From Thermodesulfobacteriota bacterium (GTDB lineage: Bacteria > Desulfobacterota_D > UBA1144 > Nemesobacterales > UBA2774): a stretch of DNA of 64,000 bases. Shown here piece by piece: positions 24-38,883 of the stretch. The notes under the pieces are model-generated. The model was given only the letters and a program-made list of their open reading frames with translations. It did no database searches and was not told the origin of the DNA. The translations under genes were made by a program, and so were the position numbers. The stretch lies in NCBI GenBank assembly GCA_963422265.1, contig OY729416.1, positions 1,536,001 to 1,600,000 on the forward strand, written 5' to 3'. Within the stretch, counting starts at the first letter, position 1; each line of letters starts with the position of its first letter.

Positions 24-422
24 ATGCCGGGGGAGGAGAAGCTCAGGTTGAGGAAAATCGCTGTAGAGATTCTCAAACTTTTGAGCGTCCCACGCAAGTG
101 TGAGCTTTGCGTCTCCTTTATAGATGACGGCGAAATGAGGGAGTTAAATAAGCGCTATCGTAATATCAACAGGACAACCGACGTACTATCATTCCCGCAG
201 GGGGAAGGTCCCGATTACACCTTGCTGGGCGACGTCGCTATATCCCTTGAGACTGCCGGGCGGCGTAGCAAAGCATATGGAATAACAATCCACGAGGAGA
301 TAAATAAGCTCATAGTTCATGGCATCCTACACTTGTTAGGATACAACCATAAGAAAAAGAAAGAAACGGACGTTATGAGACAAAAGGAGGAAGAGTTACT
401 AATGGCGGTGAAGGACCTTTGA
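24..422 (+). CDS. ybeY: rRNA maturation endoribonuclease YbeY; frame is open back to the window edge, so the true start may be upstream
   Basis: LNKRYR..TDVLSFP, LGDVAIS and the HGILHLLGYNH metal-binding motif. Confidence 0.93.
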   Translation: MPGEEKLRLRKIAVEILKLLSVPRKCELCVSFIDDGEMRELNKRYRNINRTTDVLSFPQGEGPDYTLLGDVAISLETAGRRSKAYGITIHEEINKLIVHGILHLLGYNHKKKKETDVMRQKEEELLMAVKDL

Positions 423-436
423 TACTTTGCAATAAT

Positions 437-1666
437 CTATGCCTTCTTGCTTGCAAGTTTCACTTCCTCGATAGAACGCGTAGTCGCTTTAGTTATCGTA
501 AAGGTGTAGCCTGTATGCTTTATTTTATCTCCTTCTTTAGGAATTGAACCTAACTTACAAAGGAGAAAGCCACTTAGAGTCTCGTAGTCATCGCTTTCCG
601 GTATCTCAAGCCCCAAATCATCGTTAATCATCTCAATCTCTATTTTGGGGTTTATAAGATACTCCGCCACCCCTAACTTTCTCCAGAGTTTTATGCCCTT
701 GTCATACTCGTCCTCTATCTCGCCCACGACTTCCTCAAGTATATCTTCAAGCGTAATAACCCCCACTGCCCCTCCATATTCATCTACGACAACTGCCATC
801 CCCGCGCGTCCCTCTTTCATTTCATCCAAAAGCTCATCTACGAGCTTGGCTTCGGGCACGTAAAAAGGTTGATCGGCATAGTCCCTCACCGCTTGACTAG
901 GATCAGAGTCTAAAAGATAAAAGGCGTGCAGAATACCGGTTATATTATCAACCCTTTCAGAGTATATGGGGATTCTGGAATGACCTGTTTCCCTAATTAG
1001 CTTTATAGCTTCAACTACTTTCTTATCCTCACTGAGGGCGCTTACTTGAATAAGAGGAATCATTATCTCATCTACCGTAGTCTCAGAAAATCTGAAGATT
1101 CTCTTTATTATTCTGTCCTTGTAATCTATCGTAGGTTTAGAAGTATCTCCCTCTATCACGTCTATTAGTTCTTCCCTAGTTATGTAAGTGCTTCCCGTGC
1201 TACCTATGAGATTTAACAGCTTTCTAGTGAATATGCTTACGAAAATAAGGATCGGATAAAAGATTTTTGATGCTACCCACAGTGGATAAATCGCCCACAA
1301 GACTATTGTATTTCTCTTTCTCTGAAAAACCGCTTTGGGCACGACCTGCCCAAATATAATTATAAGGGGAGAAAGAATTAAGACCGTATATAGTTCTCCT
1401 CCCCTGCCCACCTGGTCCTGGATATAGAAAGTTAGAACTATGGTGCTTGTAATAAGAGCAAGATTGATTCCAACAAGCGTAGCGCTTATAAAGCGTTCTA
1501 TCTCACCGAAGGCGCTCATTACCAACTTTGCCCTCTTAGATCCAGCGTCGGCGAGGGACTTCATTTTCACTTTATCGCACGAGACAAGTGCAATCTCAGA
1601 ACCTGCGAAAAATCCCTGCACCAGTAGCGATACGGCAATGATCAAAACCACGATTTCAAGCGACAT
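437..1666 (-). CDS. CNNM/HlyC-CorC family membrane protein (DUF21 + CBS pair + CorC_HlyC)
   Basis: GFFAGSEIAL, HSRIPIY, VVDEYGG, TLEDILEEVVGEIEDEYD; ATG at 1666 overlaps the end of the upstream paralogue. Confidence 0.9.
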   Translation of the reverse strand: MSLEIVVLIIAVSLLVQGFFAGSEIALVSCDKVKMKSLADAGSKRAKLVMSAFGEIERFISATLVGINLALITSTIVLTFYIQDQVGRGGELYTVLILSPLIIIFGQVVPKAVFQRKRNTIVLWAIYPLWVASKIFYPILIFVSIFTRKLLNLIGSTGSTYITREELIDVIEGDTSKPTIDYKDRIIKRIFRFSETTVDEIMIPLIQVSALSEDKKVVEAIKLIRETGHSRIPIYSERVDNITGILHAFYLLDSDPSQAVRDYADQPFYVPEAKLVDELLDEMKEGRAGMAVVVDEYGGAVGVITLEDILEEVVGEIEDEYDKGIKLWRKLGVAEYLINPKIEIEMINDDLGLEIPESDDYETLSGFLLCKLGSIPKEGDKIKHTGYTFTITKATTRSIEEVKLASKKA

Positions 1667-13440: not shown

Positions 13441-14628
13441 TTATCTACCAAAAGCTATCTTACCCAAAGGCACTCTGTGAGACGCTCCCGTTACCCTTGG
13501 AAGGCTGCTCTTATTTCCCGAGACAAGCTCATTTGCCAAAATCGCAAACGCTATAGCCTCTTTAGCATCCGTTGGAAGCCCGTACTTATCCGATTTGACG
13601 CATTTCAAAGTATGGAGTCTGTCTTCAAGTCTTTTCATCAAGAAGGGGTTGTCACAACCGCCCCCACTAAAAATAACCTCGCTTATCTCCGGAAACATGG
13701 GGAAAATAAACTTCTCATAAGAAAGTGCTATAGATTCTACCGTAAACTCAACAAGGGTCGCCAGCAAGTCGTTTAACGTTATACCTGTCCCGCCCCTATC
13801 AACCAAAAAAAATAGCTTTTGCGCACGCTCTTTGCCAAACAATTCCTCCCCTGCGGATTTTGGAGGCTGCTTTTGAAGGTATGGATCCGACAACAGTTTT
13901 TTAAGTAGTTGTTTATCATACATTCCTGAAGAAGCCCTAGCCCCATCCTTATCAAACCGCTCCGTTCCGTCCGTCGCTAGATTAACGACCCAGTCCATCA
14001 GAGCGTTCCCAGGACCGGTATCAAACGCTATAACCCCGTCAATATTTTCAGTAATTACGGTAGCATTACCAATACCACCGACGTTCTGCGCAATAACGGT
14101 CTCTCCCTTTTCCCTCAAGAGAATGTAATCAACATAAGGCACTAACGGCGCCCCTTCACCCCCTGCGGCTATATCTCTGGTCCTGAAGTCCCCTACGGTT
14201 GTGAGTCCAGTTTTCTCGGCAATTACATCAATCTCTCCAATCTGCAAGGTAGATGGAACGCTATTGTTATAAGAAGGTGGATTATGAAAAATGGTCTGTC
14301 CGTGAGAGGCAATTAAATCAACGTCGGTAGTTTTTAAGCCAGCTTCTTCAATAACCAGCAACGCAGCTTTGGCGAACAGGTTTCCTATAATAAAATTCAA
14401 CCCTGAAACCTCTTCTAGAGAGAGCTCTGCGCTCAGGTTTTCTAATCTGTTGCGGATATCTGATTTGTAGGGGCTACAAATGAAATGTAGCAACTCTATA
14501 TCGGTTTCAATTCCACTCCCATTGATTCTAACTAAGGCGGCATCTACGCCGTCCTTAGATGTTCCTGACATTAACCCCACCACCAACCTTTCCTCTTTAT
14601 TTAGTAGAGACCTTAGTTTCGTAAGCAT
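13441..14628 (-). CDS. anmK: anhydro-N-acetylmuramic acid kinase
   Basis: GLMSGTSKDGVD, SHGQT, GGEGAPL, FDTGPGN, KEAIAFA. Confidence 0.95.
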   Translation of the reverse strand: MLTKLRSLLNKEERLVVGLMSGTSKDGVDAALVRINGSGIETDIELLHFICSPYKSDIRNRLENLSAELSLEEVSGLNFIIGNLFAKAALLVIEEAGLKTTDVDLIASHGQTIFHNPPSYNNSVPSTLQIGEIDVIAEKTGLTTVGDFRTRDIAAGGEGAPLVPYVDYILLREKGETVIAQNVGGIGNATVITENIDGVIAFDTGPGNALMDWVVNLATDGTERFDKDGARASSGMYDKQLLKKLLSDPYLQKQPPKSAGEELFGKERAQKLFFLVDRGGTGITLNDLLATLVEFTVESIALSYEKFIFPMFPEISEVIFSGGGCDNPFLMKRLEDRLHTLKCVKSDKYGLPTDAKEAIAFAILANELVSGNKSSLPRVTGASHRVPLGKIAFGR

Positions 14629-24094: not shown

Positions 24095-24379
24095 TCATGG
24101 TCTAATCTTTTCCCATTCGGGTATATATGTGCTCATCATACTTTTGAACAGCTTGCCGTGGTTAGGGATTTTCAGGTGTAAAAGCTCATGGGCTATGACG
24201 AACTGCCTAAAGGATTTGGGTTTCTCAAGAAGCTCCAAGTTGAAGCTGACCCATCCTTTTGTTGAGCAAGAACCCCACTTACGGGTCATTTTTCTGATGG
24301 TTATACGGGTTGGAGTAACGTTGAGTTTCGCGCTCCAGTATGTGATTTCATCTCTAAACTTTTTTTTTGAAACGCTCAT
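24095..24379 (-). CDS. short YgjP/DUF45-like M48 metallopeptidase domain protein
   Basis: MTRKWGSCS, IAHELLHL..PNHGKLF (HExxH); overlaps the hsdR end. Confidence 0.85.
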   Translation of the reverse strand: MSVSKKKFRDEITYWSAKLNVTPTRITIRKMTRKWGSCSTKGWVSFNLELLEKPKSFRQFVIAHELLHLKIPNHGKLFKSMMSTYIPEWEKIRP

Positions 24380-27281
24380 CCAACTCTATAATCTCCTTTA
24401 TTACAGAAACGTCCGATCCCTCTCCGATGGCAGGCGTCAGAATTCTATAAAGAGTCGACTTTAGGGCTCTTCTTTGGTTAATATTTTCAAGGTAGTTAGA
24501 GAAAGAGTCGAAGGCTTCCTCCAATTCCGAGGTAAGAGACTCGGCGTTTGAAGCGTCAGCTTTTTCCAAAACGTCGGCAAAGGCTAGCCGTCGAGCGGTT
24601 ATTCTCCCCTTTTGATACTTTCTTTTTAATTCAACAGTTTCCTTCGCCAGTTTCATCAACTCTTCTAACGTTTGTTGGGCAGTCTCCTGACGATCATCGT
24701 ATATTTCTTTTACTTTCTGCGCTCGCTCTCCTATTGAAGTTAATATAATCTCTTGCTCAGGATTCTCCTTAACGGCTGTCATTATCAGCTTTGTCAGGTT
24801 GAATATTTTTCCCGATTCGCTCTTTCTGTCTTCTGTTATTTGGGCAAGGGTTTTCTCATCAATCACCGCCTCTTTAACTTTCTTGTTTGCTTCATACGAA
24901 TTTATCTCTTCCCTCACAAGGCTTTCCGTTTTTGTCGCAAGCTCCTTGTATTCAAGGGGAAGTTTCTCTTTCTCGAACTCTTCCATCACGATATTGTAGA
25001 GAACGCAAAGTTTCTTGTAGTCTTCCAGAAATGTCCTTAACTTAGGGTCAGGCGATAGGATTTCATAAAGGGTCTGAATCTCCCTAAGCAATTTAAGGAA
25101 TTTTCCCCTCTTTTCCCTGTGCGCAAAATAATCAATCACGTTTTCAACCGCTTTATCATTTTCCTCGCTGCACGTCAGAGTCGGATACTTTTGTGACTCC
25201 TTCATCTTATTTTCAAAGCTGTCAAACAAAACTTCTATGTCTTCTATAACCCCGCTGACGTCCTGAGAGTCAAAGGCGAGAGCTTTTTCCAGATTATTTA
25301 GAAGCCCTATAAAGTCAACTATTAGACCACACGGCTTTTCTTTTCCGTTTAGTGATAAGGGACGGTTGACGCGCGCAATTGACTGAAGCAAAACGTGATC
25401 ACGCATAGGTTTATCAAGATACATGCAATACAGAATTGGGGCGTCAAACCCCGTAAGTAGCTTGTCCGTTACTATAAAAATTCTAGGCTTTCTATCTGGC
25501 TTTACGAACTCTTTGCGAAGGGATTTCTCCTCATCTTCACTCAACTGATACTTTGCGACAAGCGGAAACCTTTGGGTGTCGTGTTGGGATTTTGTATAAA
25601 CAGCTTTGACGGATTCAGGTGGAAGCCTTTCGTCCAGTGCCCTTTTATAAAGCGCGCAGGCTTCTCGGTCAACTCCTACGAGAAACGCCTTGTAACCAAG
25701 GGGTTCAATGTTTTTCTTAAAATGCGCTGCGACGAAATCCGAAACCTTCCCGACTCTCTCGTCTGACTTCAGGAAGTTCTTTAGATTAACGGCTTTCTCG
25801 AGAACCTTGTTCAGTTGCTCTATGTCACTCAGCCCTTCCGCATCTGCCATTTCAAGAAACTCCTTGTTCAAAGTTTCTTTTGGAACTTTCATCTCCATAG
25901 GTGCAAGTTTATATTTAAGGCTGACGGTCGTCCCATCCTTTATTGATTCCCTGATTGAATACTTGTCCAGATACCCTTGTTCATCCTCAATGCCGAAGGT
26001 TTTGAACGTGCCTTTTCCATAAGCGGTTTTGTCTATCGGGGTGCCGGTAAATCCTATAAGCGTTGCATTCGGAAGCGCCCCGGTCAGGTAATTCCCAAGC
26101 TCTCCCCCAACGCTTCGGTGCGCCTCGTCTATGAAGACAAACACGTCGTCTCGGTCAGACACGTTTGCAGGCATGTTGTCAAACTTGTGGATCATTGACA
26201 CGACAAGCCCCCTAAAGTCTGCTCGTAGTATTTTTCTCAGCTCTTTTTTGCTATTAGCTCGCCTGATATCGATTCCAAAGCTCTGATTACTTTCAATAAG
26301 GGCGCTAATCCATGACGAGAGCTGACCTTCAAGCTCAGTCCTATCTATCATCGTTATCACCGTGGGATTCAGGAATCTCTCCCTGTCTTTAAGCAGAAGC
26401 TCAGCCGCTTTTATCATGGTAAAGGTCTTGCCAGAACCTTGTGTATGCCATATCAGTCCGCGTTTCTTTCTAACGTCTATACACCTTTCAATTATCCGCT
26501 CCGCCGCCTGCCTTTGGTGTTGTCTCAGGACGGTTTTTTTCAGTTCATCGTCCTTTTGATAAAAGAGAACCCATTCCTTGATTAGTTTCAGAAACCGCTC
26601 GCGGTCAAAGAATTTTTTCACCTTTCTTTCAAAATCCCCTCGCTCCTCGTCCTTCCAATTAAAAATATTCTTAGCTTCCGTGTTCCAAGTTGCACCGTAG
26701 TGGAGTTCCAACAGGTTAGTTACGTCAAATACCTGAGGCAAGGCAAGCATTCCGGGCGTGTCCCTGTGATACTGTCTTATCTGCGTAACGCCTTCTTCAA
26801 TGGCGTCTTTTTTCGTAGCGCTTTTTGTCTCGACAATGGCGACTGGAATGCCGTTAATCAGAAATACCACGTCCGCACGGCGGTTGTGTCGCGCTCCAAC
26901 GGTAGTCCATTCATCCGTAACCTGAAAGACGTTGTTATCAGGATTTGCGTAGTCAATTACCGAGATGTTAAGCTCTCGTTTTTCCCCTTCACTGTAAATG
27001 CTCTTCTCTCTCCTCATCCATCCGAGAGCGTCTCTATTTCCCCTGATGTCGTAACGGACGGACTCTATTTTGTGAATGACTTCCCCTACTTTTTTAGAGG
27101 TAATAAGTTCTGGATTAAGCGCAATCAGCCCTTCTTTTAGAATGGATGAGAACAAAAGCCCTTGCGTTCCACCTCTAAGCCGTTCCGCTTTCTTGCAAGG
27201 AACAAACTCCCATCCAATTTCGGATGCGTATTTGATTAGTGGGTCTTGAACGGTTTCTCTTTCGCTTGCGAGGGAAGGCAT
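24354..27281 (-). CDS. hsdR: type I restriction enzyme R subunit
   Basis: RADVVFLINGIPVAIVETK nuclease motif, HTQGSGKT, IDEAHRS, GFTGTP, LLTGFDAP, QSIARVNR. Confidence 0.96.
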   Translation of the reverse strand: MPSLASERETVQDPLIKYASEIGWEFVPCKKAERLRGGTQGLLFSSILKEGLIALNPELITSKKVGEVIHKIESVRYDIRGNRDALGWMRREKSIYSEGEKRELNISVIDYANPDNNVFQVTDEWTTVGARHNRRADVVFLINGIPVAIVETKSATKKDAIEEGVTQIRQYHRDTPGMLALPQVFDVTNLLELHYGATWNTEAKNIFNWKDEERGDFERKVKKFFDRERFLKLIKEWVLFYQKDDELKKTVLRQHQRQAAERIIERCIDVRKKRGLIWHTQGSGKTFTMIKAAELLLKDRERFLNPTVITMIDRTELEGQLSSWISALIESNQSFGIDIRRANSKKELRKILRADFRGLVVSMIHKFDNMPANVSDRDDVFVFIDEAHRSVGGELGNYLTGALPNATLIGFTGTPIDKTAYGKGTFKTFGIEDEQGYLDKYSIRESIKDGTTVSLKYKLAPMEMKVPKETLNKEFLEMADAEGLSDIEQLNKVLEKAVNLKNFLKSDERVGKVSDFVAAHFKKNIEPLGYKAFLVGVDREACALYKRALDERLPPESVKAVYTKSQHDTQRFPLVAKYQLSEDEEKSLRKEFVKPDRKPRIFIVTDKLLTGFDAPILYCMYLDKPMRDHVLLQSIARVNRPLSLNGKEKPCGLIVDFIGLLNNLEKALAFDSQDVSGVIEDIEVLFDSFENKMKESQKYPTLTCSEENDKAVENVIDYFAHREKRGKFLKLLREIQTLYEILSPDPKLRTFLEDYKKLCVLYNIVMEEFEKEKLPLEYKELATKTESLVREEINSYEANKKVKEAVIDEKTLAQITEDRKSESGKIFNLTKLIMTAVKENPEQEIILTSIGERAQKVKEIYDDRQETAQQTLEELMKLAKETVELKRKYQKGRITARRLAFADVLEKADASNAESLTSELEEAFDSFSNYLENINQRRALKSTLYRILTPAIGEGSDVSVIKEIIELDERFKKKV

Positions 27282-27289
27282 GGTTTAGA

Positions 27290-28180
27290 TTAGACGTGTC
27301 CCGTGTGCTCCGACACGGGACACGTCTGCTTATCTTGTGGGTATTCATCCCAAGTGCGACTTTCAAGGGTGCGCCCCGCCTTCTTTTTGTTGGTCCCTCC
27401 CCACTGTTTGAAAAAGAAAGGAACCTTTGCGCGCCTACACTGATTGCGGATTTTAATCACCCATTCTTTCTTCATAGGACGGGAACGAGGTCCGCTTTCT
27501 CCACCAACTATTACCCAGTTAATTCCATGCTTATCTCTCCCTCTCCCTGTGGGAGAGGGCAGGGGTGAGGGCGCTTTTCCCTGCTCGCCTGCCCCTGCCT
27601 CCGAGCAGGGGGAGACAGGGACAGGTTTTTCTTCCAGCATCTTGGAAATATCAAGGGGTCCTAAAAGCGGCTCGCAAGACAGAAATCTAACAGAAGAAGG
27701 TAGTCTTGAAACAATTTGCGCCCGCTCTATGTATCTCTCGTTCTCAATACTGCTTCCGAGCCATATATGTGGGTATTTCTCCGCAAACTCTTCCCCCCAC
27801 GCTTCCAGATATTCAGACATTCTTTCAGGGCGTTTTGTCAAAACTTGAAATTGATGATGGGATGCTTTGCGCATTGTTTCAAAGACCTTATCTATAAATT
27901 CATTCGGCACTTCGGGATGGAAGAGGTCGCTCATGGAGTTAACAAATATGCGACGTGACTTCTTCCATCTAAGTGGCAACTCAAGGCGTTCAGGCCACAA
28001 GCGCAGGTCAAAGCCTTGTTCGTAAGGGTGATCCTTTACTCCTCTCCACCTCTCCGCAAGCGTTTCTGCATAGCAATACTTGCATCCCGGGCTTATCTTT
28101 GTGCAACCTGTTACGGGATTCCAAGTTGAGTCAGTCCATTCAATTTTTGAAATTTCCGCCATTTTAGCCTTTCTCGGCAA
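27290..28180 (-). CDS. DUF5131 (phage Gp37/Gp68) three-Cys-motif, radical-SAM-like protein
   Basis: IEWTDSTWNPVTGCTKISPGCKYCYA (Cx6Cx2C), FVNSMSDLFH, LTKRP, SCEPLLG, WVIVGGESG, FFFKQWGG. Confidence 0.93.
   Translation of the reverse strand: MPRKAKMAEISKIEWTDSTWNPVTGCTKISPGCKYCYAETLAERWRGVKDHPYEQGFDLRLWPERLELPLRWKKSRRIFVNSMSDLFHPEVPNEFIDKVFETMRKASHHQFQVLTKRPERMSEYLEAWGEEFAEKYPHIWLGSSIENERYIERAQIVSRLPSSVRFLSCEPLLGPLDISKMLEEKPVPVSPCSEAGAGEQGKAPSPLPSPTGRGRDKHGINWVIVGGESGPRSRPMKKEWVIKIRNQCRRAKVPFFFKQWGGTNKKKAGRTLESRTWDEYPQDKQTCPVSEHTGHV
27292..27327. repeat. perfect 15-bp inverted repeat in the 3' end of the DUF5131 gene
   Basis: AGACGTGTCCCGTGT-GCTCCG-ACACGGGACACGTCT. Confidence 0.85.
27539..27625. 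repeat. composite palindromic insertion, in-frame within DUF5131
   Basis: CCCTCTCCC-TGT-GGGAGAGGG-CAGGGGTGAGGG plus CCCCTGCCTCCGAGCAGGGG; translated as PVPVSPCSEAGAGEQGKAPSPLPSPTGRG. Confidence 0.75.
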
Positions 28181-29264
28181 ATTTTATGATTGTCCCTTTA
28201 GTAAACTTACCTCTCCTTCTCTTTTTTCCATCTATCTTTTTGGGTTCTACTTTAATTTTATGACTATTATAACCGTTTTCAGATTCCAAAAGTTTCAGCA
28301 CTTTGCGAGCATGTTGTTCAAGGAATGCAGTTTCATCGTTTGTATATTCAAGCACTTCTGAACAGTCTATGTTTTCTCTTCCCTGAAATTTTCCCCAAAT
28401 GATTGGTTCCAAGTCTCTTTCCGGAGTTGGAGAAAAAAGAACTCTTTGGCCGGGGTTTACTCCATCTGAAAAACTAAACAGTCCTAATCTATCCACCGTC
28501 CACATCGCTTCTTTCATTCTCTTATGCCCAAGGGGGTGTTTTGTGGCGAAGAAAAGGTCGTATATAGGTCTGTTGTGTCTATTTCTCATTTCAAAAGAGC
28601 GGACAAACTTTGCCGCTTTCCTCAAAGACTGCTCGTATAGCTCTCTTGCTTTAGCAATCCTATTGTTGGATGATGTGATGATCTCGGATGCCGATGTGTT
28701 ACCAATCAGTTTATTGGTTTGATCAGGGAGTTCCGTTACAAAGCGTTCCATCGTTGAGTGCATAAAGGTAATCATTGCTTCACACTTATCATTTTGAAGA
28801 AATCGTTTTATAAGACCAAAAGGTAACCCATTAATTCCAAAAGGGTCTATGAAAGCGAAGGTCGGAGCGATTTGCGAACCTTCTTCATCAAGAGAATCAA
28901 GAGTGCTTACAAGGGCGGATTCAAAATTGTTATTTATAACTTCAACCTTAAAAGTGCTCGGTTGTTGTTCAACTGTGCCTTTCAAGTGGTCTGCTCTGTC
29001 TTTGTCTTCTTCCACGAAAATGAAAACCAGTTCGTTGTTCCGCAGGTGTTTAAGTTGTCCTTTTGCAACGTTCAACGCTATTAAAGGAGATCCTTGTTCT
29101 CCTCCAGAATACTCACCCGGTCCAGCAAAGCCGTCGTAGTAAATTATCCGCCCGTTCCATTTTGCAAGAATTGGAAACCAAGCCTTTAGGTATTGCTTCA
29201 GTATTAAATGCTTCGCTTTAGTATGAGGCTCTATCGTCCAGACTTTTTCTTTAGGTGGAGTCAC
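28164..29264 (-). CDS. tcmP: three-Cys-motif partner protein TcmP (methyltransferase-like)
   Basis: HTKAKHLILKQYLKAWF, YDGFAGPG SAM-binding-like motif, FAFIDPFG; overlaps DUF5131. Confidence 0.85.
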   Translation of the reverse strand: MTPPKEKVWTIEPHTKAKHLILKQYLKAWFPILAKWNGRIIYYDGFAGPGEYSGGEQGSPLIALNVAKGQLKHLRNNELVFIFVEEDKDRADHLKGTVEQQPSTFKVEVINNNFESALVSTLDSLDEEGSQIAPTFAFIDPFGINGLPFGLIKRFLQNDKCEAMITFMHSTMERFVTELPDQTNKLIGNTSASEIITSSNNRIAKARELYEQSLRKAAKFVRSFEMRNRHNRPIYDLFFATKHPLGHKRMKEAMWTVDRLGLFSFSDGVNPGQRVLFSPTPERDLEPIIWGKFQGRENIDCSEVLEYTNDETAFLEQHARKVLKLLESENGYNSHKIKVEPKKIDGKKRRRGKFTKGTIIKFAEKG

Positions 29265-29898
29265 TTGCGTTTCTCCCTCTCATCAACTCACCCATCGCAG
29301 TCTTAAAAAAATCCTGCAATGCAGATTTTTTAGCTTAGTGATGTTCAATCTTTCTGTCAATTGTTGATAATTTAGTATCTATATTGTTTTGTTCGGACTT
29401 TTTTGGTTTTGGTAGTTGAAAGAGTGAAAGAGTTTTGCCAGATAAGTTGGGAATAGTTGTGCGGTTACCGAAAGTTCCGTAAGTATTTCTTAATCCGATT
29501 GCCAATTGTAGCCAATACATATAAAAAATTGAGATAATATCATCAGTTTTGGCACGGAGGCGGTGTATATGATTCTGAAAGTAGCATTCGGCTATTTCAC
29601 TTTGCCATATTGCCGTTCGGCCTATATCGCCCCCCTCACATACAAGCAGGTCGTCTTGTCTTAGTAAAAGCTTCTCTCTTTCGTCAGGAAGAACGTCCAT
29701 CTCATCAACTTTTGACAAATCTATCTTTCCCCAAAGAACGTTTGAAGTGCGCAAAAAAGGCTTTAGGTGTTTGCCCGTCTGTTTCCTCGAAGATAGAGAC
29801 TTGCCCTGCTTCATTTCAAACAATTCTTCTACGGTTACAACCTCCCACCCCTCTGGTATCTCTCCAATCTCCGTTTGCTTTATTCCTTCGCTAATCAT
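29251..29898 (-). pseudogene. hsdS: single-TRD (half) type I specificity subunit with an in-frame TAA at 29337-29335
   Basis: KQTEIGEIPEGWEV start; after the stop the frame continues AKKSALQDFFKTAMGELMRGRNASDST* to 29251, resembling the conserved HsdS terminal helix. Confidence 0.8.
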
Positions 29899-29919
29899 TT
29901 CTAATAATTGATTTCACAA

Positions 29920-31449
29920 TCAAGTTTCTTTCTGCCATCTTGATTCTTTAAGAACTTTAACAAAATTTTCCTTTCCTTCTACCAAGAAATCATTCATCTC
30001 TCTTTCTGACCAGATGTGGTTGTAGGTTTTTATTTTTTTATCTGTGGTTTTGTTTATATCTCCATTAACTCCGCCTACACTTGAAACTTTTATTGAAGTT
30101 TTATAATGAAATTCTCCTGCATCTATTGAGAGAGTAGAAGTCATGTCAAACGACTTTTTGCATTCTCCTCTGAATCGTCTGCAATTCAAAACTAAACGGA
30201 TTATTTTACTGTCGCCCGCATACTGGCTCCCTTCAATTATCAATGCCTTGAGATTTTCTTTCCAGTTTATTGATTCTTCACTGTGAGTATAGATACGAAA
30301 ACCGTAAGACGTAGGAAAAAACAATAAAGGGATATTCTTTTTTTCTAATTTCTCTCTTTCATCCATAGAATAAAGACTCCCTTTTACAAGAATCTCTTTT
30401 TCCAAAAAAGGTACATTAAATTGTCTAAAACCTTCTTCAAACTTTTCAAACAATAGCATGAAGAGTTCATCACATATTTTTTCTGCTGTTTCCTGCGATA
30501 AAGGAACCATAAAACCTTTGTTTTTTTCTTCATTCAAAAAACTAGTCCATTCCTTATCAATATCCTCAGGCTCGCTAATATTTTTTCCCTTCGCTGCCTT
30601 AATCCCAATCTCCAACCACGCAATCAGGCTTTTGCCAAGATAAACTGCTAGAGTGTCTATATCTCCTTTATCTCCTTTGTCCGCTCTTTGCAGAGCGGCG
30701 AAGTAATTTCTTTTATCTTCGCTTTTTATAACCATTGGGGGGTAACCGAGTCGTAGTAAAACATAGTTCATCCACAGTCGGGCGATTCGCCCGTTTCCAT
30801 CGTCGAACGGGTGAATGAGGATGAAGAGGTGGTGTAGCTCCGCAAGGAAGAAAGCAATTGAATTTCTGAATTCCCGATCAGGTCGGGCATGATGGGAGAG
30901 TAGGTCAGAATTGGAAAAGAGAGGGTGTGCATTAAACCACTTCATTAACTCTTCCATCTTTGCGGGGACTTCCGCAGGTTCGGCAAACTTGAAAATCTCT
31001 CCTGTTTCCGTTCTCACGTGGTTAGGCAGTTTTTTATATTGTCCAGGAATGATTTCCTTTTGGGTTTTTTGACCGTCAGTGGTTAAGGCTTCCTTCCAGA
31101 AAGGCTCTTTCAGGATGATTTTGTTCAAGTCTCTTACGTCAGCTTCGGTGAGATTTCTCTCTTTATCCTCTGCAAACTCCTTTACCGTATTTATTGCCAC
31201 ATCGTGGGCTTTCATTTCCATATAGTCTCGCTGTGGATGAATTCCTGTCTCTTTTCCTTCTATAAGCAGAAGTTCCGTCTCGCCGTAGGTCAGGGTGTTT
31301 CCCTCAATGTGGTTTGAGTTCCAGTTCCAATCAAGCCGCATTTTCTTCCACAGCCGTTCATAGTCCTCCTGCTTGAGTGGTTGTAGTGAACGCCATTCTT
31401 CATATAGTTCTTCAATGCTCTTGTTCACGTCTTCAAGGGACATTTGCAT
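29920..31449 (-). CDS. Fic-domain protein with N-terminal autoinhibitory motif (class II) and C-terminal extension
   Basis: HPFDDGNGRIAR catalytic motif; SNHIEGN inhibitory motif. Confidence 0.92.
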   Translation of the reverse strand: MQMSLEDVNKSIEELYEEWRSLQPLKQEDYERLWKKMRLDWNWNSNHIEGNTLTYGETELLLIEGKETGIHPQRDYMEMKAHDVAINTVKEFAEDKERNLTEADVRDLNKIILKEPFWKEALTTDGQKTQKEIIPGQYKKLPNHVRTETGEIFKFAEPAEVPAKMEELMKWFNAHPLFSNSDLLSHHARPDREFRNSIAFFLAELHHLFILIHPFDDGNGRIARLWMNYVLLRLGYPPMVIKSEDKRNYFAALQRADKGDKGDIDTLAVYLGKSLIAWLEIGIKAAKGKNISEPEDIDKEWTSFLNEEKNKGFMVPLSQETAEKICDELFMLLFEKFEEGFRQFNVPFLEKEILVKGSLYSMDEREKLEKKNIPLLFFPTSYGFRIYTHSEESINWKENLKALIIEGSQYAGDSKIIRLVLNCRRFRGECKKSFDMTSTLSIDAGEFHYKTSIKVSSVGGVNGDINKTTDKKIKTYNHIWSEREMNDFLVEGKENFVKVLKESRWQKET

Positions 31450-31574
31450 TTCTCCAGTTTACTTCAAGATGTAAGTGAGAAGATTGGTTGACAGCTTTAA
31501 TTGGGAGTTGGTTTGGGGTAAAAGTTTTCGTAATCTGTTCCTCCCTGAATACAGCTTTATAATTAACCTTATTC

Positions 31575-32261
31575 TTAATTCTTCAGTCTTCGGATCTCCT
31601 CAATCTCCGTTTTCTTTGTCTTGTGTCTGTAATCTCTGGGGTCTATGCACTCGTCATACATTTTTCTTTCAATCTTTATCCAGTCAGTGTTGTTGATTCC
31701 CCGATTGTTGTCGTATGTCTTACTTACGGGGAAGGCACTTGCAATTTTGATCCAGCGGTTTTCCCGTCTTGCGATGTATCTCACCTCTTTTGCTACTTCT
31801 GACAAGTCCTGATCCTGACTTAGGATGACGGCGACGTTGCACTTATCTTCAAACACCGCCCTTGTAACGTCAAGCGCAAGCCGAACGTCAATACCCTTTT
31901 CCCGTCCGACGAGGACAGGTTTTGATGTTTTTCCAGAGTTGACCTTAGTCTTTGAGTAAAAGAGAGAGCGGGAAAACGTGTATATGCCTTTCTCTTTCAT
32001 TCTATCCATTTTACGACGCCAAAACTCATGCCATTCTGGTGATATGCTTTTTCTAGGCACGCCCGTATAAAAATGAATAGAAACTGGAATGCCCCATCCT
32101 TGTTTTTCAGATATGGAGTGAGCTAGCTTCTGAATATCGTAGTTGGGGTATCGGTAGTTGAAAGCTTCTTTGATACTGTGAAAGAAGTTTTGATCATCAA
32201 CGAAAAAAGAATCCCTTTCCCTGCTCGGAGGCAGGGACATGTTACTTTGAGGTTCGATCAT
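31575..32261 (-). CDS. NYN-domain (LabA/DUF88, PIN-fold) predicted ribonuclease
   Basis: FVDDQNFFH, REKGIDVRLALD, ILSQDQDL; GGGAGGT RBS before ATG 32261. Confidence 0.88.
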   Translation of the reverse strand: MIEPQSNMSLPPSRERDSFFVDDQNFFHSIKEAFNYRYPNYDIQKLAHSISEKQGWGIPVSIHFYTGVPRKSISPEWHEFWRRKMDRMKEKGIYTFSRSLFYSKTKVNSGKTSKPVLVGREKGIDVRLALDVTRAVFEDKCNVAVILSQDQDLSEVAKEVRYIARRENRWIKIASAFPVSKTYDNNRGINNTDWIKIERKMYDECIDPRDYRHKTKKTEIEEIRRLKN

Positions 32262-32280
32262 GACTGAACCTCCCAAGGGG

Positions 32281-32453
32281 CAAAAAATAACCCCGACGGG
32301 CCCTTCCAAAAAGGAAGAACGCGGCGGGGATGCAGATGTCTAACCGAAAACTCCTTAGAGCAAATAGTAATTGTCCGAGGAGGTATATTTGGCTTAGATG
32401 ATAACCCCAACGGGCTCTTACAAAAGGAAGAACGCGGCGGGGAGCAAATGTTG
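32281..32453 (-). ncRNA. candidate structured small RNA (hairpin repeat, 61-nt spacer, hairpin repeat, U-tract) upstream of the NYN gene
   Basis: Direct repeats at 32287-32339 and 32401-32451, each folding as CCCCG..CTTCC-T(4-5)-G(G/T)AAG..(C/T)GGGG; TTATTTTTT after the distal copy; promoter immediately 5'. Confidence 0.6.
32287..32451. repeat. two ~52-bp direct repeats with a 114-bp period
   Basis: ATAACCCCGACGGGCCCTTCCAAAAAGGAAGAACGCGGCGGGGATGCAGATGT versus ATAACCCCAACGGGCTCTTACAAAAGGAAGAACGCGGCGGGGAGCAAATGT. Confidence 0.95.
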
Positions 32454-32458
32454 CTATG

Positions 32459-32488
32459 ACTGTATATGATTTTATAAGTGCTTGTCAA
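32459..32488 (-). promoter_or_regulatory. sigma70-type promoter for the repeat RNA/NYN unit
   Basis: TTGACA (32488-32483)-N18-TACAGT (32464-32459); predicted TSS ~32453-32451, at the start of the first repeat. Confidence 0.65.
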
Positions 32489-32510
32489 ATAGTTTTTTTG
32501 TAACATAGTT

Positions 32511-34067
32511 TCATTTCTCACTCCCCATTTTCCTGAAAATACTTTCAATCTCACCATCAATTGTTTTAGACTCCTTCTCAAGTTCTTTTAGCTCTTTCCA
32601 TATCTCCGGTATAGGTCTAAGGATTTCTTTTTCCGTCGTGTCAACGTAGCGCGACGGTGAAAGGTTGTAGTCGTTTTTCGCTGCCTCACCCGTAGTTATA
32701 ACCTTTGAGAAACGCTCAATATTCTCTCCCTTGGCAAAGGCATCTGCTATCTTCTTTATGCCTTCATCGGTCAGGTAATTTTTAGGTCTGCCCTTCTTAA
32801 ACTCTCCACTTGCATTTATAAACGTTATCCTGCCCTTTTGCTCCTTAGGCTTATTTCTGCTTAACAGTATGATTATTCCCGCTGCGGTTGTGTTGTAGAA
32901 AAGGTTTTCAGGAAGAAGGATTACGCCGTCTATAAGGTCGTTTTCCACAAACCACTTGCGAATTCTCTTTTCTTTGTCCTCACCTGCCGCCCCGCTTCCG
33001 CGAGTTACAGCTCCGGTATCTATGACGACCGCAGCCCTTCCTTTAGGGTTAAGCGTCTTCGCCGTGTGCTGAAGCCATGCCCAGTCTGCCTTTCCAGTTG
33101 TTATGCCCCCCTGTGATTCAAATCTATCAAACGGGTCGTCCTCGTATGTAGAGACATTGAAGGGCTGGTTCCACATCGGATTGGCTACTACTATGTCAAA
33201 CTGCTTTAGACTACCGTCTTCGTTACGGAATTTTGGATTAGTCATTGAGTTTCCGCGTGAGATTTTGGATTCCATATCGTGAATAATTGTATTCATAAGT
33301 GCCATGGCGTAGTTGTCGCTCCCAAGCTCCTGCCCGAACAGCTTGAGGGGCTTTCCCTTTTTGGCATCAGGGTCGCGCTCTAGCAGGGCAAGCTCGCATT
33401 TGACAAGCAGGCCAGCTGATCCGCAGGCGTAGTCATGGACGGTTTCCCCCTGACGGGGTTTCATCATCCTCGCCATAAGCCAGCCCACTTCGGTAGGCGT
33501 AAAGAACTCCCCGGCGCTTTGGCCAGAGTCCTCGGCGAATTTTCTCAGTAGGTATTCATAGCAGCGTCCTAGAAAGTCCGGCTCAACGTTAAAAAGCCCA
33601 AGTCGGTATCGCGGGTCAGAAAGCGTCTCAATCACGACTTTAAGGGCAGAGTCGCTTACCTCACGCTCCCCGCCTTTTGTTTCGTTGTAATCAACAAGGT
33701 TTATCACCCCCTCTAGAGAGGGGTTTTCTCTTGCAACTGTCCGCATCGCGGTAGTTATTTGTTCTCCGAGGTTATTCGTGTTCGGGCCTTTACCCTGTGG
33801 CGAGTCAAGCTGCTCGCGTCCGCTAAGAACTGCCCAGTGGGTTTCAGGCGGTAGATAAAAGCGCGTCATTTCTCTATCTTCACTGGCGATTCTCAGTGCT
33901 TTTTCCACTCCTCCTTGCGACTCGGCAAGCCGTGAAATTTCATCTTCAAACACGTTGGAAAGACGCTTTAAGAAGATAAGAGGAAGAAGGTAGTCTTTGA
34001 ATTTAGGGGCATCCTTTTCACCTCTGATTGAGCAGGCGGCTTTCCACAGCATTTGTTCCATCATCAT
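32511..34067 (-). CDS. hsdM: type I R-M N6-adenine methyltransferase M subunit
   Basis: LWKAACSIRG, GEFFTP, DYACGSAGLL (motif I), VANPMW (motif IV variant), LPENLFYNT, YNLSPSRY. Confidence 0.95.
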   Translation of the reverse strand: MMMEQMLWKAACSIRGEKDAPKFKDYLLPLIFLKRLSNVFEDEISRLAESQGGVEKALRIASEDREMTRFYLPPETHWAVLSGREQLDSPQGKGPNTNNLGEQITTAMRTVARENPSLEGVINLVDYNETKGGEREVSDSALKVVIETLSDPRYRLGLFNVEPDFLGRCYEYLLRKFAEDSGQSAGEFFTPTEVGWLMARMMKPRQGETVHDYACGSAGLLVKCELALLERDPDAKKGKPLKLFGQELGSDNYAMALMNTIIHDMESKISRGNSMTNPKFRNEDGSLKQFDIVVANPMWNQPFNVSTYEDDPFDRFESQGGITTGKADWAWLQHTAKTLNPKGRAAVVIDTGAVTRGSGAAGEDKEKRIRKWFVENDLIDGVILLPENLFYNTTAAGIIILLSRNKPKEQKGRITFINASGEFKKGRPKNYLTDEGIKKIADAFAKGENIERFSKVITTGEAAKNDYNLSPSRYVDTTEKEILRPIPEIWKELKELEKESKTIDGEIESIFRKMGSEK

Positions 34068-34276
34068 GGATGCGGGTCCGATTTTGTCCCTTCGGTTTCC
34101 TCTGCCATTGCCATTATTGCTCTTGCGTGTTTAGCGCGGGGCGTCCGACGTCCATTTTCCCAACCGTTCAAGGTAGAAAAAGAAACCCCAAGTCTTGAAG
34201 CCATCTCTTCCTGAGACAGATTGAGTTTTTCCCTAATGCTTACTATGATAATGGTAAAGTCTTCTTTATCAGCCAA
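34064..34276 (-). CDS. XRE-family HTH regulator coupled to hsdM
   Basis: IREKLNLSQEEMASRLGVSFSTLNGWENGRRTP; GAGGAG RBS; ATGA overlap with hsdM. Confidence 0.85.
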   Translation of the reverse strand: MADKEDFTIIIVSIREKLNLSQEEMASRLGVSFSTLNGWENGRRTPRAKHARAIMAMAEETEGTKSDPHP

Positions 34277-34316: not shown

Positions 34317-35759
34317 TTACATTTGATTTGTCAAGTCTGACGCAGGTTGCAACAAGGCTTCCCTAAATTTCTTACCTGTCAAAGATCTTCCTGCATCATA
34401 GCAGGCGATGCTTATGGGACTGAAGAGGACCGTTCCACTATCATATCTCCGGTAGCTACGTTTGGTAAGTGTAAAGCAGACGCAACCTGGTGAATAAGGT
34501 GCATTTCCGAGCTTCTGCTCCGTGGCAAAATCAAGTAGCCCCTTAATCTCAGACAAGTTTTCAAAGGGTCTGTCAGACCATTTAATTTCAATTGCTAGCT
34601 TTGCTTGTGTTCCCGTTTCATCCATAATTACTAAGTCAACCTCTCCGTTTCTCCAGCGAGCGTAACACAATCTTTCAAACTGCTTTGTAAGGTGAAATAG
34701 GTGGCTGAAGACGGCGGTTTCCGCGAGTTTTCCCAAAACGGTTTTGTTATCCTCACTCACCGGTCCAAACAGCGCTGCATACATTGAGGGGTTTGTAAGA
34801 TAGACTTTGAATTTATGCTCTCGTTTGAACCTTCTAGCGCTCTTGTCTATTCGGTTGAGGCGTTTTATCAGGAAGGCGGCTTCAAGATATTCTAGATACC
34901 TATATAGTGTACCCTTAGCTACATTTGATCCTTGAGAGAGTCCAGGAAGATCAATCTCCTGTCCCGTGTTGTGAGCGAGCGTCATAAATAGCCGATTGAG
35001 TTCTGGAATATCGCTGATTCCATAAAGGCTTGGCAGGTCGCGCAGAAGCACCTTGTCTATGATGTCGTTTCTGATAAAGCGGCTTGGATCCTTTCTAATC
35101 TCTTCTGAGAATACGGCTTCTGGATAACCTCCAAAGTTTATGTAGTTCACAAACTCTTTGTTGACTTCTTCAATCTCCGTTTTCACGGTGATGCTTACTT
35201 CTCTGAATTTCATGTATTCATAAAACGTCAAAGGGCGCAGGGTAAAGTCGGTGAATCTTCCTGCGCCGGACTCATCACTTTTCAGTTTTAGAGCGGCAGC
35301 CGCCGAACCTGTGGCTATGAAGCGGTGCTGTGGGTAGGAGTCAACCAATGATTTCAAGTGTTTCTCCCAGTCTTTCAGGTATTGGATTTCATCAAAAAAG
35401 AGATAGGCGGACCCATTGTGGGGAATTGTATTCAATTCGATGAACGTCAGAAGTATATTTTCAAGCGACAGTCCAGCATACAGCGGGTTGTCTAGAGGGA
35501 CGTAAAGAACGTTTTTCGGGTCAATTCCTTCCTTTATAAGTTGGGCTATTGCCTGATGAACCATAACGGTCTTGCCCACCCTGCGGGGTCCCATCAAGAC
35601 AACCGCACGGTTAATCTCCGTTTTAGCTATTAGTTCGTAAAATGGGGAGAGATAGCCTCGTTTCGGTTTATCTTTCCACCTAACGTCATTGCTGTCTTTC
35701 CACCAGGGACTGTCCATGCGAAGGCGCTGGAGGATTTCTTCTTTTGAAACACTTAACAT
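34317..35759 (-). CDS. AAA_14 ATPase with DUF4143 / C-terminal PD-(D/E)xK-like domain
   Basis: GPRRVGKT, FFDEIQ, ATGSA, GGYPE, EVDLV..AIEIKW; ATG at 35759. Confidence 0.9.
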   Translation of the reverse strand: MLSVSKEEILQRLRMDSPWWKDSNDVRWKDKPKRGYLSPFYELIAKTEINRAVVLMGPRRVGKTVMVHQAIAQLIKEGIDPKNVLYVPLDNPLYAGLSLENILLTFIELNTIPHNGSAYLFFDEIQYLKDWEKHLKSLVDSYPQHRFIATGSAAAALKLKSDESGAGRFTDFTLRPLTFYEYMKFREVSITVKTEIEEVNKEFVNYINFGGYPEAVFSEEIRKDPSRFIRNDIIDKVLLRDLPSLYGISDIPELNRLFMTLAHNTGQEIDLPGLSQGSNVAKGTLYRYLEYLEAAFLIKRLNRIDKSARRFKREHKFKVYLTNPSMYAALFGPVSEDNKTVLGKLAETAVFSHLFHLTKQFERLCYARWRNGEVDLVIMDETGTQAKLAIEIKWSDRPFENLSEIKGLLDFATEQKLGNAPYSPGCVCFTLTKRSYRRYDSGTVLFSPISIACYDAGRSLTGKKFREALLQPASDLTNQM

Positions 35760-35787
35760 AAAGTTCAATCTTACTAAAAAGAAGTTG

Positions 35788-35827
35788 ATTGTCAAATAAG
35801 ACTAATTGATTAGTCTTATTTGACAAT
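35788..35827. promoter_or_regulatory. perfect 19-bp inverted repeat overlapping the ATPase promoter
   Basis: ATTGTCAAATAAGACTAAT-TG-ATTAGTCTTATTTGACAAT; minus strand reads TTGACA-N16-TAAGAT. Confidence 0.75.

Positions 35828-37203: not shown

Positions 37204-38883
<1,680 letters not shown>

Follow-up and report, generated by a model that had tools for sequence, protein, structure and literature searches.

A structured leader RNA precedes a clade of NYN ribonuclease genes in a mobile module recurrently nested in type I restriction-modification operons

Introduction

A stretch of 64,000 nucleotides from a Thermodesulfobacteriota bacterium (contig OY729416.1 of assembly GCA_963422265.1, positions 1,536,001 to 1,600,000), hereafter the window, carries on its minus strand a type I restriction-modification (R-M) operon in which a gene for an NYN ribonuclease (RNase) is preceded by a promoter and two copies, A and B, of an RNA hairpin. 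The locus raises the question of what such a hairpin does in front of an RNase gene, and whether it acts as a terminator, as a device controlling the mRNA to which it belongs, or as a partner of the enzyme itself. The hairpin is a structured RNA motif absent from Rfam 15 and supported by covariation, and the window contains a self-contained mobile module, with its own promoter, a leader RNA of about 55 nt and the NYN gene, embedded in the type I R-M operon. The sequence evidence favours, with a probability of about 55%, a terminator-type leader or small RNA that is also the specific RNA partner of the NYN protein.

Bacterial LabA-like NYN proteins form a large group, for which a 2017 survey of the PIN superfamily gives the function as unknown (PMC5499597). 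The leader RNA gives a testable handle on this group, and a small RNA of fixed sequence tied to one NYN clade makes it possible to ask whether the enzyme binds this RNA, is blocked by it, or cuts it.

Loci, alignments and models

NYN relatives numbered 2716 proteins at E ≤ 0.001 among 2852 candidates, and a scan of species-representative genomes gave 482 confirmed NYN relatives, from which the best 80 loci (L004 to L083; 47–65% identity, many phyla) were kept, so that family counts out of 80 refer to the best 80 of 482. The alignment of the NYN relatives is called A1. The motif alignment, A2, comprises 75 of the 80 loci, without L004, L005, L030 and L083, which have long insertions in stem P2, and without L022, a duplicate of L019. 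The covariance model R1 was built from A2, and copies A and B of the window were outside its training set. Lone copies were surveyed in three phylum samples of 151 genomes each (453 genomes), the class of each sampled motif copy being assigned by tblastn against the 900 nt downstream and then by inspection, with at least 200 aligned amino acids for an intact NYN gene. Phage copies came from a pattern scan of IMG/VR.

A covarying hairpin upstream of NYN genes

The motif is about 55 nt long and begins with a 5' tail, A-Y-Y-U-G-C-U, followed by a basal stem of 10 bp, P1, in which CCCCGYYNGA is paired with UCNRRCGGGG. Above P1, an internal loop, formed by 3 nt of the 5' strand and one C of the 3' strand, leads to P2 (GCC/GGC), which is capped by GNRA loops (45/75), UNCG-type loops or insertions, and the consensus 3' of the stem is UUAUUUUUU. 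The motif lies upstream of the start codon in all 80 NYN loci; an arm-pairing script placed it in 78, L010 and L038 being located by sequence, and R1 recovers all 80. Thus, the upstream check that the initial annotation of the window had proposed for NYN homologues, a conserved covarying CCCCG..CGGGG hairpin, gave a positive answer throughout, and its view that the repeats are more than a plain terminator is borne out: they represent a conserved, covarying and sequence-specific RNA tied to the NYN clade, not a plain or duplicated hsdM terminator.

The structure has 13 pairs, for which 97.2% of the cells in A2 are paired and both sides change in 10/13 pairs; none of 500 shuffles matched these values, and sliding the partner by 1–3 columns as a control left 34–55% paired. 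Given A2, RNAalifold on its own predicted 11 pairs, nine of them with compensatory changes, and in P1 the paired share reaches 98.3% of cells across the family. Moreover, unpaired positions are near-invariant in the 5' tail (A8, 71/75; U11, 75/75; C13, 72/75) and in the internal loop (C45, 74/75), as is the UUAU that follows the stem (U56 and U57, 75/75; U59, 71/75), and the CCCC/GGGG base of the stem is fixed. These near-invariant unpaired bases, together with the fixed stem base, constitute a putative binding site for a specific protein. No pseudoknot is predicted, the RNA being a bulged hairpin.

Rfam 15 gave no relevant match at E up to 10 in window positions 31000–33000 and no match at E up to 1 in 15 motif-bearing loci, and a topic search of the literature, at the level of titles and abstract openings, found no description of the motif. 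A leader peptide is ruled out, the recurrent upstream pseudo-peptides being one DNA motif read in three frames. Pairing of the tail and stem as antisense to a segment of 16S rRNA is also ruled out: the 8-mer in question is absent from the 16S rRNA of the window genome and occurs 48 times genome-wide vs 54 expected.

Promoter, terminator and the control of expression

A −35/−10 pair with at least 8/12 matches stands just upstream of the motif in 67 of the 80 loci, vs a mean of 3.0/80 and a maximum of 9 at random positions of the same loci. The −10 box usually ends 12–19 nt before P1, the commonest distance being the 16 nt seen in the window, and the RNA is predicted to start about 6–12 nt 5' of the stem, too close for an antiterminator to fit upstream. 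The window genome is bacterial according to the small-subunit (SSU) rRNA model RF00177, matched with 1562 bits over its full length and, therefore, a reading of the promoter as sigma-70-type applies. The same match rules out an archaeal promoter, an idea that came from a thermosome-like gene in the window.

On the downstream side, at least six U are found within 9 nt after the stem in 77/80 loci, which, with a GC-rich stem (median hairpin energy −23.5 kcal/mol), gives these loci the features of an intrinsic terminator. Moreover, the stem ends 9–67 nt before the start codon (median 23 nt) and a recognisable Shine-Dalgarno (SD) sequence is present in only 24/79 loci, thus the hairpin would also crowd the ribosome-binding region. 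For most transcripts, synthesis would end at the U-run, the product being a small RNA of about 55–60 nt, whereas the NYN mRNA would arise only by read-through, which would keep the RNase scarce and the RNA in excess.

These same features are what a purely cis-acting leader would have. According to this explanation, which seems rather unlikely, the hairpin would be an attenuator or insulator combined with a translational block that almost silences a harmful gene, it would be read by a host factor or by the polymerase and the ribosome, no complex of NYN with the RNA would form, and copies without a NYN gene would be relics. The terminator features in 77/80 loci and the closeness of the hairpin to start codons that mostly lack an SD sequence speak for it. 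However, the unpaired positions are conserved across phyla with different host factors, and the short distance from predicted start to stem does not accommodate an upstream antiterminator.

The distance to the promoter also bears on a DNA-level element, such as a site of recombination, the terminus of a mobile element or just a second copy of the hsdM terminator, which we consider very improbable. A promoter at a fixed upstream distance in 67/80 loci, an orientation that is constant relative to the NYN gene and adjoins its start codon, and the lack of a conserved recombinase gene nearby are at odds with it and, since the upstream genes differ between loci, the motif is not their terminator. 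It would nevertheless account for direct copies 10.5 kb apart in one genome (G127) and for cargo replaced just after the first NYN codons.

The window locus and its local duplication

In the window, the 250-nt gap between the end of hsdM (32511) and the NYN ATG holds the promoter and both repeats (Table 1). The initial annotation had placed on the minus strand a promoter, a repeat, a spacer, a second repeat, a ribosome-binding site and the NYN gene, and all its coordinates hold; the order of promoter, RNA, terminator and RNase is also the layout of the family. Each repeat folds, as had been proposed, into one long hairpin (−18.7 kcal/mol, z −3.4, in copy A; −24.0 kcal/mol, z −3.2, in copy B), and, of the three stem positions at which the copies differ, two indeed remain paired, as that annotation stated, and the third (G to U) leaves copy A with a C-U mismatch. 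None of 100 shuffles contains the 21-nt core of the repeat, of which the window has two occurrences, and R1 matches copy A with 20.2 bits (E 0.02 in 64 kb) and copy B with 21.2 bits (E 0.011 in 64 kb).

Copy B resembles an intrinsic terminator (terminator scan match at 32302–32289 plus a T-run), whereas the 3' tail of copy A, UUAUCAUCU, has no terminator U-run. No convincing promoter of its own was found for copy B in the window and, since copy A lacks a U-run, both copies are probably co-transcribed from one promoter. The 61-nt spacer includes a partial leader repeat, AUUUGCUC. A co-transcribed copy A without a U-run and copy B with one would provide two binding units per transcript.

No third copy of the repeat was found by blastn-short in the 1.78-Mb genome. 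A dispersed repeat of the REP or MITE kind is ruled out, there being two genomic copies only, plus one weak model match of 19.9 bits (G000:C1:925765-925822, minus strand) that is probably an ordinary terminator. Another weak R1 match, at window positions 13665–13714 on the minus strand (15.1 bits, E 0.39), is probably also an ordinary terminator.

The duplication is not a trait of the family. R1 finds one motif copy in 76 of the 80 loci, and a tandem second copy, 99–142 nt apart, in L016, L034 and L058, while L009 has a second copy 1.9 kb upstream, before HicB/HicA. A separate promoter precedes each of the two copies in L016 and L034, so the whole promoter and RNA unit is duplicated there. Moreover, in a contig of run X6 with the same species label, 95–99% alike, position 32302 is joined to 32417 and 114 nt (32303–32416), equal to one repeat period, are absent, so that this strain has the canonical single copy. 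Assembly collapse is an unlikely cause of the single copy, because the longest exact repeat (22 nt) is shorter than the 31-letter words of the run index. The window duplication is thus a strain-specific 114-nt tandem event, and tandem repeats do not stand as a feature of the system. Likewise, the C-U and C-C mismatches common to copies A and B, which had been taken as a retained and therefore meaningful trait, are a by-product of recent duplication, P1 being almost completely paired in the family.

The NYN protein and its clade

The window protein matches the Pfam NYN profile with 31.9 bits vs a cut-off of 24.2 (E 2.2e-7), and its acidic motifs FVD, EKGID and SQDQD are intact. Most of its relatives have a length of about 208 aa, and FxDGQN, EKGID and SQDQD are retained in A1, where D22 is nearly invariant, E121, D125, Q149 and Q151 are invariant, and D150 and D152 are conserved. 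The predicted structure (pLDDT 86.7) has as its best solved match the LabA-like protein 2qip (E 2e-7), with the NYN domain of MARF1 (5yaa) among the matches. A profile score above the cut-off, conserved acidic residues and a PIN-like fold place the protein in the NYN family. Neither Pfam, which gives NYN only, nor the folds, those of 2qip and MARF1, indicate a toxin of the ToxN, CptN or TenpN type, and no ATPase domain was found by Pfam when the protein was compared with PrrC.

The motif accompanies NYN genes of the clade and also occurs without them

In one phylum sample of 151 genomes, all six strong NYN matches (317–328 bits) have the motif, and the motif is absent from four genomes with only weak NYN-family matches (28–56 bits); G484 contains a weak NYN match and the motif on different contigs. 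R1 finds no motif in the distant NYN loci L002 and L003, which come from relatives of the window genome. Among viral contigs, the motif is present at 11/13 NYN loci, the exceptions being one cut by the contig end and one relative of 29% identity, and in five genomes in which the contig of the locus is labelled a whole chromosome R1 finds the motif once each, at NYN. Since NYN is the only constant partner, it is the protein that the RNA would bind.

A tie of this kind to one RNase clade, in 80/80 loci and 6/6 strong matches, could also mean that NYN cuts its own leader hairpin as an autoregulatory substrate and destabilises its own mRNA, with no antitoxin role for the RNA. Conservation of the internal loop and tails would be in keeping with a recognition site in that case, too. 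However, it leaves unexplained the duplicated promoter and RNA units and the lone copies in phages and in genomes without an NYN match, and is considered improbable.

The converse association is loose. The motif was found in 6, 7 and 9 genomes of the three phylum samples, with 31 matches in total. An intact NYN gene lies downstream of 13/31, a NYN remnant (a stub or replaced cargo) of 10/31, seven of these detected as partial tblastn matches and three keeping only the first M..EP..KR codons, and 7/31 have no trace of NYN nearby (L090, L092, L093, L095, L115, L116 and L121); one copy of the 31 (L127) lies at a contig end. The RNase gene is thus often decayed or replaced while the RNA module stays, and the module is mobile, with occurrences in prophages and at sites embedded in R-M operons. 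No NYN-profile match at E up to 0.001 exists in G127, which has three lone copies, or in G186, which has one.

The scan of IMG/VR gave nine phage stretches, six of them distinct, with 47–66 bits with R1. None of the six distinct copies has an intact NYN gene beside it, and five lack any NYN nearby; in the remaining one (L107), the NYN start is broken off after about 26 codons. One phage copy (L102) lies between baseplate and tail-fibre genes, and 7 nt separate another (L106, 424–565, on a 153-kb viral contig) from the tRNA-Met downstream of it, which belongs to a tRNA cluster. Three more tRNAs follow, and the sequence just upstream of this motif copy resembles the 5' half of a truncated tRNA.

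When 12 lone or phage copies are aligned with the two of L009, the 14 are 93.2% paired, with AU-for-GC and GC-for-CG swaps, although this alignment, being fitted to the model, leans towards the structure. Lone and phage copies that keep the fold, together with promoter and RNA units that are duplicated whole, fit an RNA that may act in trans, as do the cases in which the RNase has been lost and the RNA kept, the common course of decay in toxin-antitoxin pairs. The purely cis-acting explanation would expect neither whole-unit duplication nor compensatory changes in phage copies without NYN.

Two of the lone copies of G127, L090 and L095, on the same strand and 10.5 kb apart, share the upstream sequence CCGGCATACG and may border an inserted island. 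In addition, intact leaders are followed by 'mini-NYN' frames of about 46 aa in L091 (about 1570–1700) and in the merged L130/L132 region of G394; in three cases from two phyla, the C-terminal motif CLDRRDYR comes immediately after the first ~30 residues (which end with AFG[YH]), the result, perhaps, of repeated deletion between short stretches of similar sequence, or else a small protein under selection. Between the motif copies of G394 are two small genes on the opposite strand, which, judging by their translations, resemble a MazF/PemK-type toxin and its antitoxin.

How the RNA may act

If the leader is the specific partner of the NYN protein, binding of the RNA would most likely make it an inhibitor or decoy, that is, antitoxin-like, and otherwise an autoregulatory substrate. 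A complete RNA-protein toxin-antitoxin or abortive-infection module of a new class is a more tentative proposal, possible but well short of probable: a single-hairpin RNA, self-terminating and in excess, would hold NYN inactive until a phage shuts off host transcription and thereby releases the enzyme; lone copies in phages, including the one in a tRNA cluster, would serve as decoys, and bacteria that no longer have the RNase would keep the RNA as a safeguard against incoming copies. If the antitoxin-like reading were true, RNA antitoxins would no longer be confined to the three ToxN-type families but would include partners of a PIN-like fold, and the NYN-less copies in phages and bacteria would suggest an arms race with decoys, as with pseudo-ToxI.

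Several observations weigh against a specific RNA partner of NYN. The start and the stop of the RNA are both sequence predictions; no RNA run is listed with the locus, and three runs presumed to be RNA gave two small pieces, neither of which covers the leader, an outcome that does not bear on expression. The window copies are divergent, with about 21 bits vs 48–77 bits in typical short-stem copies (the long-insertion loci L004, L005 and L030 score 30–37 bits with R1), and do not have the GA/UC closing pairs of the family. Some lone copies are degenerate (35–40 bits) and may be relics. In L131, the promoter and the leader are joined, together with the first ~12 codons of NYN, in frame to a complete gene for a YhcG/DUF1016 PDDEXK nuclease (349–1491, minus strand; Pfam E 5e-58), and elsewhere the leader stands upstream of a DUF3644 gene (L125) or of HicB/HicA (L009). 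Finally, HEC-09, the one NYN candidate that has been tried for defence, is reported to have protected against none of the phages used (10.1101/2024.01.29.577857).

The same leader before other cargo fits a portable cis-acting platform as well as a NYN-specific partner, and its retention before replaced cargo (YhcG/DUF1016, DUF3644, HicBA) and beside NYN stubs (10/31 sampled copies) counts in favour of the purely cis-acting explanation. The L131 cargo was apparently swapped just after the start codon, and the same genome also has an intact leader and NYN module 1.4 kb downstream. In L120, a gene containing an rve integrase domain comes after the leader.

Comparison with known systems

Among the systems nearest to the module are those of type III, ToxIN, CptIN and TenpIN, defined by one promoter, an RNA of tandem short repeats, a Rho-independent terminator and an endoribonuclease (PMC5086642). 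The NYN module is like them in having one promoter, a small non-coding RNA, a predicted Rho-independent terminator and an endoribonuclease gene, and in occurring in defence contexts and on mobile DNA. In type III systems, the terminator sets the excess of RNA over RNase, a feature to which the NYN module may be likened from its sequence. Moreover, its phage copies without NYN nearby recall pseudo-ToxI, a look-alike RNA that phages carry (PMC3475682).

However, the RNA of the NYN module is a single bulged hairpin bounded by a predicted start and terminator, whereas in type III systems a tandem array is processed into units that form pseudoknots. In the NYN module, the hairpin also serves as the predicted terminator, the enzyme has an NYN/PIN-like fold, and its inhibition by the RNA is putative. 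It is, therefore, extremely unlikely that the locus is a true type III system with a toxin-processed repeat-array antitoxin. The matching order of parts and the two repeats in the window speak for such a system, but a single unit in 76/80 loci and in the X6 strain, the absence of the ToxN fold and the lack of a predicted pseudoknot speak against it. From the type III layout to which the initial annotation compared the locus, the order of promoter, RNA, terminator and RNase stands and the repeat array does not; the ToxN-like fold, another defining feature of type III, is also absent.

Structured 5' untranslated leaders are also found on the E. coli RNase genes rne, rnc and pnp, where they are cut or bound to tune mRNA decay in a negative feedback and are not terminators. 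The NYN leader is like them a structured 5' hairpin specific to an RNase gene and conserved with it, and the rne, rnc and pnp leaders are not known to occur by themselves in phages or where the gene is missing. In the PR'-tR' unit of lambda-type phages, a promoter is followed at once by a terminator and a short RNA is made constitutively; the NYN module likewise would have a short RNA as its default product and a gene expressed only on read-through. Unlike the lambda unit, no antiterminator or loading site is evident in the NYN leader, and the sequence of its hairpin is conserved across phyla.

Two further systems resemble the module in their setting. PrrC of EcoprrI is an anticodon nuclease with an ABC-ATPase N-domain, encoded in a type I R-M operon and held in check by the R-M proteins (10.1101/2024.01.29.577857). 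The NYN gene lies, as prrC does, on the same strand between hsd genes in the window and in about 10/80 loci, but hsdM is not a neighbour in 70/80 NYN loci, where an RNA is what constantly accompanies the enzyme gene, as in the rest of the family, and the ATPase domain is missing. HEC-09, a defence candidate in PADLOC, shares with the module an NYN-type fold and a context embedded in defence genes, but the window protein matches it weakly (E 1.1e-8, 33 bits), HEC-09 has an extra N-terminal domain, and the part of its description at hand does not mention an RNA element (10.1101/2024.01.29.577857).

Genomic setting

The position of the NYN gene inside an hsd operon, which the initial annotation had pointed out, recurs: grouping the neighbours by all-against-all clustering, the largest clusters after the NYN frames are HTH-HsdM upstream (10/80), HsdS downstream (9/80) and Fic downstream (4/80). 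No conserved partner gene was found among the 80 loci, the largest neighbour cluster covering 10 of them, thus the leader and NYN unit is self-contained and recurrently nested in type I R-M operons. The features of the window locus and of its host operon, the latter annotated with Pfam, PADLOC and NCBIfam, are collected in Table 1.

Table 1. Features of the leader and NYN locus and of the surrounding operon (window positions).
Feature	Positions	Strand	Remarks
Sigma-70-type promoter	32459..32488	-	TTGACA 32488-32483, N18, TACAGT 32464-32459; 10/12 matches
Predicted transcription start	near 32452-32450	-	From promoter position
Motif copy A	32393..32456	-	5' tail CAUUUGCU, hairpin 32442-32405, 3' tail UUAUCAUCU
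Spacer between copies, 61 nt	32340..32400	-	Part of the 113/114-nt tandem duplication unit
Motif copy B	32279..32344	-	5' tail CAUCUGCAU, hairpin 32329-32291, then TTATTTTTT / UUAUUUUUU at 32290-32282
Shine-Dalgarno-like GGGAGG	32269..32274	-	7 nt 5' of ATG
NYN (LabA-like, PIN-like fold) ribonuclease gene, 228 aa	31575..32261	-	Pfam PF01936
Host operon	24354..34276	-	Pfam, PADLOC, NCBIfam
HTH_3	34276-34064	-	Host operon
hsdM	34067-32511	-	Host operon; followed by leader and NYN
Fic gene	31449-29920	-	After NYN in operon; PADLOC PDC-S04/SoFic-like
hsdS	29898-29335	-	Host operon
TcmP-like	29264-28164	-	TIGR04474, E 3e-61
DUF5131	28180-27290	-	Host operon
hsdR	27281-24354	-	Host operon

The TcmP-like and DUF5131 genes match the PADLOC candidates PDC-M30A/B and PDC-M41A/B and form a second embedded passenger pair, between hsdS and hsdR. 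Upstream of HTH-hsdM is an AAA_14/DUF4143 ATPase gene (PDC-S01; 34317–35795, minus strand) and, farther upstream, a Cpn60_TCP1 gene for a group II chaperonin-like protein (37204–38868, minus strand) is present despite the bacterial SSU rRNA.

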